A stretch of DNA of 64,000 bases from Planctomycetota bacterium. GTDB lineage: Bacteria; Planctomycetota; UBA1135; UBA2386. Below, one piece after another: positions 3,248 through 9,395 of the stretch (position 1 is its first letter; every line of letters starts with the position of its first letter). The stretch covers positions 6,240,001 to 6,304,000 of the forward strand of contig OZ245006.1 of NCBI GenBank assembly GCA_965223545.1. The letters run 5' to 3'. The position numbers were made by a program, and so were the translations under genes. The notes beneath the pieces are model-generated. The model saw only the letters and a program-made list of their open reading frames with translations, had not been told where the DNA came from and did no database searches.

Positions 3248-3345
3248 ACGTACGGAGCCAGGCTCCCATTCATCACTTCGCCGGCCGACGGCCGACGAAG
3301 CACCGCGAAGTGATGAATGGGAGCCTGGCTCCGTACGTTCAGTTC
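3241..3345. repeat. Perfect 41-bp inverted repeat with 23-nt loop between convergent genes
   Basis: GAACTGAACGTACGGAGCCAGGCTCCCATTCATCACTTCGC at 3241-3281 and its exact reverse complement at 3305-3345. Confidence 0.95.
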
Positions 3346-3943
3346 AGGGCTCGAGGGGGACGTTCCAGTAGCGCTCGGAGACGAACTTCTCCCACGACTG
3401 GCGCACGCGGCCGACCGCGACACCCAGGGACGGCGACCACTTGGGGCGCTCCGGCGGCTTGGCGAGCCGCAGGCCGGCTTCCAGAGGGGTGCGGTCCGCC
3501 TTGCGACGGTTGCACTGGACGCAGGCGAGCACGCAGTTCTCCCAGGTGCTGCGGCCCCCGCGCGAGCGCGGTAGCACGTGATCGATGGTGAGCTCGTTGG
3601 TTCCCGGCTTGCGCCCGCAGTACTGGCAGGTGTTGCGGTCGCGTCGGTACAGGTTGCGCCGGGTGAACACGACGGTCTGCGACGGCACCCGGTCGTAGCG
3701 CGTCAGCACGATCACCTCGGGGATGCGCAGGCGCAGCGTCACGGTGCGCACGCACGGTTCTTCCGGTGGAATCGCCAGGTCGGCCCAGGACTCGAAGCCG
3801 TGCGCTTCGTAGGTCTCGGGCACGATGGCCTTGGCGGCGCCCGAGTACACCAGGCGCAGCGCGTCCCGCACCGAGGTTGTCGCGATCGCCAGCCAAGATC
3901 GGTTGAGCACCAAGGTCGGTTGTGCCAACACGTTGACTGTCAT
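3344..3943 (-). CDS. HNH endonuclease (McrA-like, stand-alone)
   Basis: RD..TCQYCG, TIDHVLPRSRGG..TWENCVLACVQCN..K motifs and an N-terminal LVLN..W. Start chosen at ATG 3943. Confidence 0.9.
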   Translation of the reverse strand: MTVNVLAQPTLVLNRSWLAIATTSVRDALRLVYSGAAKAIVPETYEAHGFESWADLAIPPEEPCVRTVTLRLRIPEVIVLTRYDRVPSQTVVFTRRNLYRRDRNTCQYCGRKPGTNELTIDHVLPRSRGGRSTWENCVLACVQCNRRKADRTPLEAGLRLAKPPERPKWSPSLGVAVGRVRQSWEKFVSERYWNVPLEP

Positions 3944-4086
3944 GACGATACGATAACGGTTCCCAAGAGAGTTCATCGGCGCCTGGGCCGCTCCGAGAGA
4001 GTCGAAAACGGAAAGGCCCGATGCCAGCGCGGCGTTGCGCGTCGAGATCGCGGTTGCGCCGCCGGTCACGGTATCATGTTTCCACG

Positions 4087-6382: not shown

Positions 6383-7465
6383 TCAGCGTCGCGGCTTCTG
6401 GGGGCGCGGCACCGAGGGGCGGGACGTCGGGGCGGCGTTTGGCGGCTCTTCTCGGTCCGGTTCCGCTTCCCCTCCCTTCGCCGCGGCGCGCGCTCGCTGG
6501 CGCTCGGCCTGCCGCTTTTGGCTCTGCATGTAGCCCTCGGTGCCGAACTGGACGCCGCGGCCGAGTTTGGCGTTGTTGTCGTAGTAGTCGCGGCCGTAGT
6601 CGGCGAATGCCTCGACGTCGAAGCGCTGGAACGGCACGAACGGCCGTTCCGCCAGCCGTTCGTGCACGAGCTGGTTGATCGGCTTGAGGGTATCGCCGGT
6701 CGTGCCCTGCGCGGTGGATAGGAACGTGTCGCGGGGCTCCCGCTCGCGCCGCTCCCGCTCCGCCGCCGCGTCGAACCCCTGCCACGTGCTGCGCGCGAAG
6801 GTGGCGGGTCCGTGCGTGCGCAGGGCGGCCAATTGCAGCCGGGAGTACATCTCCCGCTTGGCGGAGGCGCCGCGCGAGCGATCGCGCCACAACGCGTGCA
6901 ACGTCGTCGCCAGCTCGAGCTCCTGCGCCAAGTCGTCGGGATGCCAGAACCCCGGCAGTGCGTGCAGCACGACGCCCGACGCCGACAAGACGAAGATCTG
7001 CACGTTGCGCGCGCCGGCACCGTTGGTGGTGCCGACCGCGGGCTGGTCACAGGTGTAGCCGTGTGAGCGACCGACGTAGTCCTCGCGGGCGATGTTGTGC
7101 CAGCCGGCGACGAAGTCGCGCGCCAGCAGCGACCGCACGCGTTCGTCGGCGAGGGCGACCGCCCTCAAGCTCTGGCCCGCGCTTCAGAGGAAGCCGTCGA
7201 TGTCGCCGAGCGCCTGGATCCAGAGGACCGGCTTGCCCTGTGCCCGGCCGGCCGACAGCGCCGCGCCCAGCGAGCGGTACCAGCGCACGTCCTCGAGCAG
7301 GCCGTCGACGGCGGCGCGCACCTGCTCGCCGTTCAGCTGGAGCTTGCGGAAGGCTCTTGCCTCACGCGCCGCACGGCGCACCGCAGCCGCGTCCTGCGCA
7401 AAGGCGGTCGTCGGTAGAAGGGGCAGGAGCGCGGCAGCAGCCGCGACGATGCGGGAGGTGGCCAT
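6383..7465 (-). CDS. Putative secreted selenoprotein, SelN(SELENON)-like thioredoxin fold, with in-frame UGA (Sec) at 7184-7186
   Basis: ORFs 7184..7516 and 6383..7168 share a frame and are joined as GKPVLWIQALGDIDGFL-U-SAGQSLRAVALADERVRSLLARDFVAGW. Signal peptide MATSRIVAAAAALLPLLPTTAFAQ; SECIS-like hairpin after the UGA. Confidence 0.75.
7151..7166 (-). promoter_or_regulatory. Bacterial SECIS-like hairpin
   Basis: mRNA reads UGA-N17-GAGGGC-GGUC-GCCCUC; the apical GGUC loop starts 23 nt after the UGA. Confidence 0.7.
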
Positions 7466-7582: not shown

Positions 7583-7936
7583 TCACTCCGATCGCAGCAG
7601 AGTGCAGGGCAAGAACTCTTCGAGGAACTGCTGGGTCGGGCCGGTGTTCGGATCGAACTCGACGCCGACGTCCCAGAGGCCGTTGTCGGTCGGCTCGGCG
7701 CGCCGGACCTCGACGCGCATGTTGTGCAGCTGATTGCCGGCGGCCACCCGCAGCACCACGCTCTCGCCGACGAAGAACCGGTTGGGTGTGCGGATGCCGA
7801 GGCCGCGGACCGACACGTTGGACACGATGCCCAGCGCGTGGTCCTCGGAGTCCGGCCGCTCGGCCGAGATCCGGGCAAAGGTCTGCTTCTCGAAGCGCTC
7901 GTCGCGCCGCCGGTCGTCGATGTGCTGAGCGTCCAT
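7583..7936 (-). CDS. PilZ domain protein (c-di-GMP receptor)
   Basis: RRDER (RxxxR) and NVSVRG (D/NxSxxG) motifs, C-terminal VGVEF. Confidence 0.85.
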   Translation of the reverse strand: MDAQHIDDRRRDERFEKQTFARISAERPDSEDHALGIVSNVSVRGLGIRTPNRFFVGESVVLRVAAGNQLHNMRVEVRRAEPTDNGLWDVGVEFDPNTGPTQQFLEEFLPCTLLRSE

Positions 7937-8189
7937 GATGTGAACTCTTGTCTTCGCGTTCTGCCGGCGGCATCGGAAGCCGCGCAGCGGAGCTTGAGTG
8001 GGGCCGGAGGGTGAGCGGTCAAGGCGGCGCGGGCACACGGCACCGCGACGATGGGTGGCGATGCGCGAACTCCCGCTGGCGCCGGGCCGGTGCGCCACGA
8101 GCGGATGGCCACTGCCCTAAGACGCGCGCCTGCGCGGGACTGTCTCGCTTCGAGAAAGCCGAAGCTCGACGATTCGTGGCGCCGGACGC

Positions 8190-8984
8190 TCAGCCCAGCT
8201 GCGCCTTGGCCTGCGCGACGCTCTGCTTGAGCGCTTCCATCAGGTTGAGGATCTTGGGCTCCTCGGGGTCGGCGACTTCGATCACCTCTTGGCCATCGAC
8301 CTTGGCCTGGATCAGCTCGGTGAGCCGCTCGACGTAGGTGTCCTCGTAGCGGCCGATGTCGAAGTCCTCGATCCGGGTTGCTTCGATCAGCGTCTTGGTC
8401 AGCTGCAGCTCGTGGTCGGGTAGCTCTTGTTCGGCGAGCTCCTCGACGAACGTCTGCGGCTGCTTGACCTTGGCCTTGTGCACCAGCACGACCATGGTCA
8501 GCAGCTTGCCGGCGGGCCGGATGGCGACCAGTTGCTCGCGTCCCGAGATCACGACTTGCGCGATGGCCTCGACGCCGGCATCGACCATCGCTTGCAGGAG
8601 CAGCGCGTAGGGCTTCTGTCCGACCGCACCGTCGGGCAGAAGATAGTAGAAGCGGCCGGAGCGGTAGATCTCGTCGATCCCACCGCGGTCGACGAAGCCG
8701 TCGATGCGGACCGAGTTGTCGCGTTCGGGCCGGAGCTTCTGCAACTCGTCGAGGTCGACGCGCACGTACTGGCCCTTGGCGTACTCGTAGCCACTGACGA
8801 TCTGGTCGCTCTCGAGCGCGCCGTGCTCCGGGCACGACTTCTGGTACTTGACCCGCTGGTTGCAGTCGGCGTGCAGCTGGTTGAGTCGGATGTCACTGCC
8901 CGACGTGGTCGCCGTGTAGCCGCGCACGGGCACGGTGACCAAGCTCAGGCGCAAGAATCCCTTCCACGTCGGTCGCGGTGCCAT
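8190..8984 (-). CDS. ku: Non-homologous end-joining protein Ku
   Basis: RPTWKGFLRLSLVTVPV, LNQLH..C..RVKY, IVSGYEYAKGQYV, YEDTY, NLMEALKQS. Confidence 0.95.
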   Translation of the reverse strand: MAPRPTWKGFLRLSLVTVPVRGYTATTSGSDIRLNQLHADCNQRVKYQKSCPEHGALESDQIVSGYEYAKGQYVRVDLDELQKLRPERDNSVRIDGFVDRGGIDEIYRSGRFYYLLPDGAVGQKPYALLLQAMVDAGVEAIAQVVISGREQLVAIRPAGKLLTMVVLVHKAKVKQPQTFVEELAEQELPDHELQLTKTLIEATRIEDFDIGRYEDTYVERLTELIQAKVDGQEVIEVADPEEPKILNLMEALKQSVAQAKAQLG

Positions 8985-8987
8985 CGG

Positions 8988-9395
8988 TCAACCGCGAACG
9001 GAGTCGACGTCCATGACGTACAGCGCGACGACCACGTCGTCCTCGCGCTCTTCGCCGATGTAGAGCTTGCCGGAGATCTCGACCGTGCCGGCAAACACCT
9101 CGGTGGTGACCCCCTCGGGCATCGCGCAGAACACGACTTCGTTGAGCTTGGGCATGCCCTCGCAGCCGCAGGCGTCGTCGATGAGCATGAAGAACTCGAC
9201 CGGGCCGATGCCGTCGTCCTCGCGCTGCATGAAGCCGGACAGCGTGATCTCACGCTCGTCGTACTGGGTGACCTCGGCCGGCAGGGTCATGCCTTCCTGG
9301 TACTCGAACCCGGACAGCACGGCGAAGTCGACCTTCTCCGGTTCTAAAGGACCGGCCAGGACGGCGGCCAGCCCGATGGTCCACGCGAGCTTCAT
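8988..9395 (-). CDS. DUF3299-like exported protein
   Basis: LPAEV..YD...ITLSGFM, EFFML..ACGC...P..NEVV, V.ISGKL; ends 3 nt upstream of ku. Confidence 0.65.
   Translation of the reverse strand: MKLAWTIGLAAVLAGPLEPEKVDFAVLSGFEYQEGMTLPAEVTQYDEREITLSGFMQREDDGIGPVEFFMLIDDACGCEGMPKLNEVVFCAMPEGVTTEVFAGTVEISGKLYIGEEREDDVVVALYVMDVDSVRG

Follow-up and report, generated by a model that had tools for sequence, protein, structure and literature searches.

On the minus strand of a planctomycete contig, what look like two hypothetical genes almost certainly form a single gene, which encodes an exported, thioredoxin-like selenoprotein of 360 residues. They lie in the stretch of 64,000 nucleotides that was analysed as a whole (the window; Table 1). 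Comparison with homologs leaves us close to certain that SelB and tRNA-Sec read the in-frame UGA at codon 94 as selenocysteine (Sec) by way of a hairpin 23 nt downstream, giving a single protein. The recoding itself is of the textbook kind; the family is widespread (261 stretches in GTDB) and split in nearly every database record, and it would represent a predicted exported selenoprotein without resolving Cys or cis-Pro in lineages seldom studied for selenium.

A single reading frame interrupted by UGA

On the minus strand, a 110-aa ORF (7516-7184) and a 261-aa ORF with a TTG start (7168-6383) share a frame and are separated by the TGA at 7186-7184 and five sense codons, just as an earlier note on this DNA had placed them. 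Starting from the ATG at 7465, the joined frame runs through the UGA as codon 94 to the stop TGA at 6385-6383 and encodes 360 aa, with Leu93 directly before the UGA, which agrees with the note's remark that Leu and not Cys precedes the Sec. Its expectation that annotation would break the gene in two was also right, as database records keep the halves as separate proteins, and the halves do not occur as unlinked genes: they lie in frame in 81/81 hits among the best 80 of 261 GTDB loci. Two contigs from public sequencing runs of one study, which may be the source DNA, span the stretch with zero differences, and no RNA run was among those listed as containing it. A scan for promoters and terminators found none on the strand of the gene.

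Table 1. Features of the selenoprotein gene and neighbouring genes in the window
Feature	Position	Strand	Basis
Full gene, 360 aa with UGA94 as Sec	6383..7465	-	frame reading; homolog linkage
True stop TGA of the 360-aa frame	6385-6383	-	
In-frame UGA, codon 94, read as selenocysteine	7184..7186	-	homolog column, model, CxxC alignment
Bacterial SECIS, 6-bp stem, GGUC loop 7160-7157, 23 nt past the UGA	7151..7166	-	covariation, codon skew, hairpin test
Predicted signal peptide, residues 1-23, inferred cleavage A-F-A / Q24	7397..7465	-	sequence
Predicted Thioredoxin_7/DsbD-gamma/AGR-type domain, about residues 51-194	6884..7315	-	structure + profile matches
Cys139, not conserved	7049..7051	-	alignment
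Asn154, cis-proline column, after invariant T-N-G-A-G loop	7004..7006	-	alignment
Family-specific C-terminal subdomain, about residues 195-300	6566..6883	-	alignment, model
Charged low-complexity tail, residues 311-360, varies among homologs	6386..6535	-	alignment
PilZ-domain protein	7583-8014	-	neighbour in window
Ku protein	8190-8984	-	neighbour in window
Weak DUF3299 protein	8988-9395	-	neighbour in window
HNH endonuclease	3344-3994	-	neighbour in window

Conservation of the UGA codon among homologs

Homologs were collected by scanning GTDB with two motifs from the downstream half of the protein, a search that is blind to codon 94. The scan gave 261 confirmed stretches, and the homolog counts rest on the best 80 of these loci with 81 copies, labelled as Planctomycetota or its subgroups (57), Melainabacteria/Obscuribacterales/Cyanobacteriota (15), Bryobacterales (1) or carrying no label (7). 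The Sec column holds TGA in 80 of the 81 copies (79 read directly, plus L068 with an alignment offset of two codons), TGC in one, and TAA or TAG in none; within these best 80 of 261 loci the TGA spans at least three phyla. Of 61 related genomes, 30 match the protein, some with multiple copies, a set that overlaps with the GTDB set and is not independent of it.

The single TGC copy belongs to a tandem pair (L026 / L084) in which a TGA copy is followed by a TGC copy that has lost its SECIS loop along with several of the C-terminal invariants; the pair serves as a natural control for the change from Sec to Cys. Among 150 listed representatives of the database relatives, 18 full-length ones span the Sec column, with 12 Cys, 2 Trp, 1 Ser and 3 other residues (divergent paralogs). 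For one of the Trp proteins, P0134, the cluster also includes the same gene from longer contigs, where it is called split just past this column. Gene calling under another code is the likely cause, and we rejected this Trp as an artefact. The second is P0135. The earlier note had named Trp or variable residues at this column as evidence against its reading, and given TGA in 80/81 copies (best 80 of 261) we judge that this is not the situation here.

The SECIS hairpin

The hairpin GAGGGC-GGUC-GCCCUC occupies 7166-7151, and its loop (7160-7157) begins 23 nt after the UGA. Its stability alone does not exceed that of shuffled sequences (z 0.25 for 45 nt and -1.46 for 26 nt), and since the folding energy is unremarkable, the case for a SECIS is made by comparison of homologs. 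The bacterial SECIS consensus has a loop of 3-9 nt, a stem of 4-16 bp and a spacing of 16-37 nt (PMC13188914, section 5), with a G within the first two loop positions and an energy of at most -7.5 (PMC13188914). The window hairpin falls inside all of these ranges, with a 4-nt loop, 6 bp, 23-nt spacing, the loop G and -12.2 kcal/mol for a folded 26-nt piece. It is therefore like the E. coli fdhF-type element in loop, stem, G position and spacing, judged by the same consensus, and shows no difference of kind from it, although its stem sits one base out of register with that of the window protein's own relatives.

Across 51 Planctomycetota-type sequences (50 loci out of the best 80 of 261 and the same-genome paralog), 99.3% of cells in the 6-bp stem are paired and there are 21 double-sided changes, 16 of them from C-G to A-U; 0 of 500 shuffles matched this pairing and covariation and slid controls were far lower, with the caveat that the structure was derived from the same sequences and that related sequences are not independent. 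Homologs among the best 80 of 261 use three stem registers, with 4-, 5- and 6-nt loops and an identical loop G-U in all; the window hairpin has the 4-nt-loop register, and relatives have loops of 5-6 nt with the stem offset by one base. A strict hairpin test, with thresholds chosen after the hairpins had been inspected, was passed by 79/80 TGA sites (best 80 of 261) versus 32/2000 control positions, and a loose test by 80/80 versus 617/2000. The Cys (TGC) copy fails the strict test.

Arg101 is encoded by CGG, AGG or AGA only, the top codon skew among the 108 columns scored (best 80 of 261), and the codon of Val103, which supplies the loop G-U, encodes Val in 80/80 TGA loci (best 80 of 261); four close Cys proteins have Thr, Thr, Ile and Leu at this position. 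The bacterial SECIS that had been proposed downstream of the UGA is thus upheld by the consensus, by covariation, by its conservation among homologs and by its loss in Cys forms. The proposed check of homologs for Cys or TGA at the column and for the hairpin gave TGA in 80/81 copies, TGC in one and a hairpin at 79-80 of 80 TGA sites (best 80 of 261).

Selenocysteine machinery of the genome

The selA, selB, selC and selD genes, whose absence would have spoken against recoding according to the earlier note, were all found. Those for SelA, SelB and SelD score above curated cut-offs, the selD gene carries an in-frame TGA of its own, and tRNA-Sec is the sole tRNA with a UCA anticodon found in the genome. 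Because prfB is present (C1:3852269-3853294), UGA is otherwise a stop in this genome; the one in-frame TGA in prfB is expected from its programmed frameshift. We found selA in 60/61 related genomes, the single miss being a genome that is 73% complete and has tRNA-Sec, and in 5/5 of the distant carriers examined, of which four belong to Melainabacteria/Obscuribacterales and one to Bryobacterales.

Domain structure of the predicted protein

By eye the N-terminus is signal-like, with an h-region and A-F-A followed by Q24, and a crude hydropathy rule finds such N-termini in 74/81 copies (best 80 of 261) versus 3/424 internal-Met controls. The signal peptide previously noticed on the joined protein is therefore a consistent prediction, and a signal peptide of the Sec-pathway type very probably exports the protein to the periplasm.

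An AlphaFold model of residues 24-330 (pLDDT 96, pTM 0.93) places the Sec directly before helix 72-81 (mature-chain numbering), and the Sec aligns with the first Cys of CxxC control proteins. In this model the fold is of the Thioredoxin_7 type with Sec at the N-terminal attacking position, so that model and CxxC alignment agree with the earlier assignment of the UGA to the active site of a thioredoxin-like fold. The best structure match is 3f9u_B (VIA-align Z 10.4, rmsd 2.2, 111 residues), followed by 2lst (Z 9.3), 3ira (Z 9.0) and AGR3 (Z 7.9), all thioredoxin-like; Foldseek gave none at E 0.001 or better, with top entries of the same class. The closest known types are thus Thioredoxin_7/DsbD-gamma/DsbH/DUF255 and AGR2/AGR3 by structure (Z 7-10) and AGR2/AGR3, which have one active-site Cys only, by PDB profile (E about 0.01). 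Unlike these, the window protein has a five-residue insertion before the active residue, Sec for Cys, no cis-Pro and an extra C-terminal subdomain.

A C/U-x-x-C motif is absent, as U+3 is Leu in 33, Gly in 29, Ala in 17 and Met in 1 of 80 (best 80 of 261), and U-1 is Cys in only 1/80 of the same set. The suggestion that a resolving Cys might lie in GYTCDQ did not hold up: Cys139 is present in the closest relatives and in 20/80 overall, and no other column exceeds the 25/80 at position 169, which is Ala in the window protein (best 80 of 261). With 60/80 homologs (best 80 of 261) lacking it, Cys139 was rejected as a family-wide resolving residue. The cis-Pro column, assigned by sequence alignments in which SELENON-type and CxxC proteins have Pro, holds Asn in 80/80 (best 80 of 261); by these alignments no cis-Pro precedes strand 3.

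The C-terminal subdomain contains the invariant polar residues R225, Q229, D232, R270, G291 and D296, and residues 190-310 modelled alone reach pLDDT 90. Further invariant residues, N148, N154, Q156 and W174, lie upstream of it. Its best match among PDB structures has Z 3.2 and Foldseek gave zero matches, which is not proof of a new fold. One family member, P0022, carries extra Cys-rich sequence at its C-terminus (listed as Pfam PF24273) that is possibly metal-binding.

Relationship to SELENON

The earlier note called the protein SelN-like. Distant kinship stands, with the thioredoxin domain of the animal SELENON profile matching the window family at 96.8% and E 2e-10, but membership of the family does not, since separate bacterial orthologs exist. 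When 401 genomes of the phylum were searched with a short motif, 7 matches emerged, and 5 of these form one Cys-Sec family with its own SECIS; among its relatives are Ca. Poribacteria proteins and two JGI records that automatic annotation already names 'selenoprotein N'. The profile of this family found 20 weaker matches (P0400-P0419, best E 3e-46), most of them named SELENON or from animal genomes, and fits animal SELENON over 359 columns at 100% and E 3e-48 (hhalign). As judged from these profiles, the Cys-Sec proteins are true bacterial SELENON orthologs. A thesis, unpublished, reportedly deals with a Poribacteria SelN homolog.

The window family at full length fits animal SELENON over about 100 columns (82.6%, E 1e-5, hhalign), and pairwise BLASTP of the window protein against SELENON gives E 1e-4 at 24%. 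Against three canonical CxxC groups the animal SELENON domain profile scores 87.9%, 63.5% and 0.1%. The window profile scores equally against mixed CxxC controls and bacterial orthologs (97.7% vs 97.6%) and reaches 99.6-99.8% against other Asn-type subfamilies, and the ortholog profile aligns with the window family in its last 44 columns only but with SELENON throughout. The gapless alignment to SELENON given in the earlier note holds from the Sec to the strand-ending Trp and breaks just upstream, at a one-residue indel. In the animal SELENON database records read (among P0400-P0419), the Sec codon region is omitted or altered, hence an alignment gap there. For a natural Cys homolog, the ESM Atlas showed unnamed bacterial clusters (0.90-0.91) and weak Thioredoxin_7, with no SELENON cluster among them.

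In an unrooted tree of 85 hand-picked domains (61 SELENON-like, and 24 CxxC controls from six genomes), the controls are set apart from the rest (98/93), and the rest divides into an Asn-type branch with the window family (99/96) and a SELENON-type branch (96/92). A quick tree, also unrooted, which includes 7 further domains from animals and omits 4 rows (three long-branch singletons and one duplicate), places animal SELENON inside the bacterial orthologs (SH-aLRT 95). Because the trees are unrooted, a common origin presupposes a root among the CxxC proteins. On present sequence comparisons our verdict is that the window family is a cousin of SELENON and not a member.

On both sides the Sec occupies the attacking position of a Thioredoxin_7-type domain and is preceded by a short insertion (G-x-L/I-D-x-x-x), and the alignment runs without gaps from Sec to the next strand; the two also share a secretory-pathway location (predicted for the window protein) and the same side of the tree. 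The N-terminal domain of SELENON, however, is absent from the window protein, which has only 93 residues before the Sec, and no EF-hand (by Pfam scan) or membrane anchor was seen in it; SELENON itself combines calcium sensing through an EF-hand with reductase activity on SERCA2. The SELENON dyad, C427-U428 (PMC7474598), is likewise absent from the window family (Leu93; Cys at -1 in 1/80, best 80 of 261), which has Asn for cis-Pro and adds a C-terminal subdomain of its own.

The bacterial SELENON orthologs (L119-L123, L132-L134, L137, P0285-P0369) come from Planctomycetota and Ca. Poribacteria, are full-length and mostly have signal-like N-termini, Cys-Sec, cis-Pro and a SECIS. Their database entries end at the UGA, they have no Pfam or NCBIfam model, and a PDB profile search for them found no PDB sequence. 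Fifteen further proteins (P0373-P0387) have sigma-70 region 2/4 (ECF-type) domains fused to a SELENON-ortholog domain, and P0373 stops exactly at the Cys preceding the expected UGA; these are possibly sigma factors with a selenoprotein sensor module.

Tentatively, and with slightly more doubt than confidence, we regard the window gene as belonging to a single branch within a large bacterial superfamily of SELENON-related proteins that is so far uncatalogued; animal SELENON would then be of bacterial stock and the window protein a natural 'trapping' form. The superfamily would then consist of exported single-Sec thioredoxin proteins in many subfamilies of Planctomycetota, Ca. Poribacteria and Obscuribacterales, including full-length orthologs that enclose animal SELENON, and the window branch would have a chemistry not yet described for selenoproteins. 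Soluble proteins of this kind would make the unsolved structure and the catalytic cycle of SELENON testable. Bacterial relatives of this myopathy protein, soluble and both with and without the Cys-Sec dyad, offer a practical route to its mechanism.

Proposed mechanism and alternative explanations

The earlier description of an exported redox selenoprotein stands for recoding and, as a prediction from homolog comparison, for export; its redox role would follow from the modelled active site. Sec is almost certainly inserted at UGA94 by SelB and tRNA-Sec under guidance of the SECIS, and the signal peptide very probably routes the protein to the periplasm. There the selenolate may attack an oxidised sulfur on an envelope protein or peptide client, either a disulfide or a sulfenylated Cys, and form a mixed selenyl-sulfide. 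With no Cys beside the Sec, that intermediate must either persist for long or be resolved by an external partner; a small thiol or a CxxC/UxxC thioredoxin of the periplasm could serve, and the genome holds several UxxC/CxxC Thioredoxin_7 genes as candidate recyclers. The invariant T-N-G-A-G loop, the Asn for cis-Pro, G-F-W and the C-terminal subdomain probably confer specificity for one client. In SELENON, residue 428 attacks and a C427S,U428C mutant remains substrate-bound (PMC7474598); by analogy, the window protein may correspond, in natural form, to the 'trapping' mutant SELENON C427S or to AGR2 with its single Cys. We lean slightly towards this whole chain, a single-selenol oxidoreductase outside the cytoplasm that acts on a putative client and is recycled by outside thiols.

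The main rival keeps the same selenoprotein but makes it a small-molecule enzyme or metal(loid) binder. The Asn loop and the C-terminal subdomain would build a pocket in which the Sec reacts with a peroxide, with a carbon-halogen bond in the manner of a deiodinase, or with a soft metal. This reading gains its standing from the missing cis-Pro, replaced by Asn in 80/80 (best 80 of 261), and from the many polar residues that are invariant beyond the thioredoxin core. The cis-Pro is thought to be part of the polypeptide-binding site, and it may prevent metal binding, with Arg found there in peroxiredoxins (PMC2757866); its loss argues against a generic protein-disulfide role, and the Cys-rich add-on of P0022 also fits a metal binder. 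Against this, the protein has neither a peroxiredoxin TxxU nor a GPx UxxT motif (U+3 is Leu/Gly/Ala), His168 (66/80) and His175 (57/80) are not invariant (best 80 of 261), the nearest folds are thiol-disulfide proteins, and metal-resistance or dehalogenation genes do not recur nearby. We consider this reading unlikely, though a serious competitor of the single-selenol oxidoreductase. A dithiol-type enzyme in which Cys139 resolves Sec94, at least in the window subclade, is improbable: Cys139 occurs in the window protein and its closest relatives, but it is missing from 60/80 homologs (best 80 of 261), including the same-genome paralog, and no Cys column compensates for it (maximum 25/80, position 169; best 80 of 261).

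That the protein is a true bacterial SELENON ortholog with SELENON function is more doubtful still. Its thioredoxin domain aligns with that of SELENON Sec to Sec, and the split that sets canonical CxxC proteins apart (98/93) leaves the family on the side of SELENON; the other bacterial family, however, fits animal SELENON over 359 columns (E 3e-48) and has the animals nested within it, while the window family fits about 100 columns (E 1e-5), has neither the N-terminal domain nor Cys-Sec nor cis-Pro, and does equally well against the mixed CxxC control profile (97.7% vs 97.6%). The 359-column and about 100-column profile matches, together with the nesting in the tree, largely refute orthology. 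We would be very surprised if the UGA were a real stop, leaving two genes or a pseudogene, or encoded Trp or another residue. Such readings could appeal to the halves stored as separate database proteins and to the two proteins with Trp at the column, one of which (P0134) shares its cluster with a gene called split just after it. They do not account for TGA in 80/81 copies in at least three phyla and never TAA/TAG (best 80 of 261), for a column that swaps with Cys, or for a hairpin that covaries and vanishes in Cys forms, and the genome has prfB and no UCA-anticodon tRNA found other than tRNA-Sec.

Comparison with catalogued selenoprotein families

NCBIfam release 20 and Pfam gave no usable match to the 360-aa protein (NCBIfam 0 families at E up to 1), Cys relatives had weak scores against NCBIfam models, and all 17 relatives scored there fell far below cut-off. 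No model was found in NCBIfam release 20 for the bacterial SELENON orthologs or the other single-Sec paralogs tested. In the accessible part of PMC13188914 (2026), Table 1 with 119 families has no recognisable SELENON-like row or matching motif, the families without a model being compared by name and motif only, and the selenoproteins given as common to prokaryotes and eukaryotes are SelD, GPX, DIO, SELENOW and MsrA, with SELENON not listed. Term searches in the accessible portions of the BSepDB and deep-Sep papers, of metazoan/algal selenoproteome papers, of a selenoprotein review and of the Porphyra planctomycete paper revealed no such family, and among the listings of an open literature search none describes the window family or bacterial SELENON; the families of Haft and Tolstoy (2025) were covered through NCBIfam and Table 1 of PMC13188914.

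The catalogued thioredoxin-fold selenoproteins whose SECIS lies within the ORF (UxxC, CxxU, VPGUxxT NF041382/3, Trx7/PDZ NF041199) are like the window protein in SelB-type recoding and, as far as the accessible part of Table 1 of PMC13188914 goes, in SECIS geometry and thioredoxin fold. They differ in that the catalogued motifs UxxC, CxxU, CxU and UxxT/S are absent from the window protein, which also has no NCBIfam/Pfam match. The window family was thus not found in the catalogues checked and, from sequence, appears related to but distinct from animal SELENON.

Neighbouring genes and other selenoprotein genes

Upstream of the gene are one gene for a PilZ-domain protein and one for Ku. Clustering of the neighbourhoods of 83 loci revealed clade-level synteny only, with no conserved operon; the window neighbours are not kept, and no conserved neighbour in this set hints at a client or reductant.

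The same genome has a paralog with about 50% identity (L036:3742-4641 +, C1:2993741); its Sec column is likewise TGA and it has a SECIS-like hairpin, but it lacks Cys139. Two further genes (L037:3311-4258 -, C1:2580658, and L126:1898-3142 +, C1:6151520) encode single-Sec thioredoxin-like proteins that are predicted to be exported, one with Cys-Sec and one with Cys-x-Sec, each with a hairpin downstream and neither with an NCBIfam family. Five Thioredoxin_7 matches in this genome (L163, L164/L127, L166, L167, L169) have an in-frame TGA in UxxC and downstream hairpins, and L127 is fused to a CopZ-like metal-binding domain. TGA-bearing related subfamilies occur in 47/251 genomes searched. Further Planctomycetota subfamilies (L138-L158) also carry TGA at this column, with a comparable stem encoded by the conserved Arg codon region; in some genomes such genes are arrayed in tandem, and in L138 another TGA lies upstream, following a Cys.
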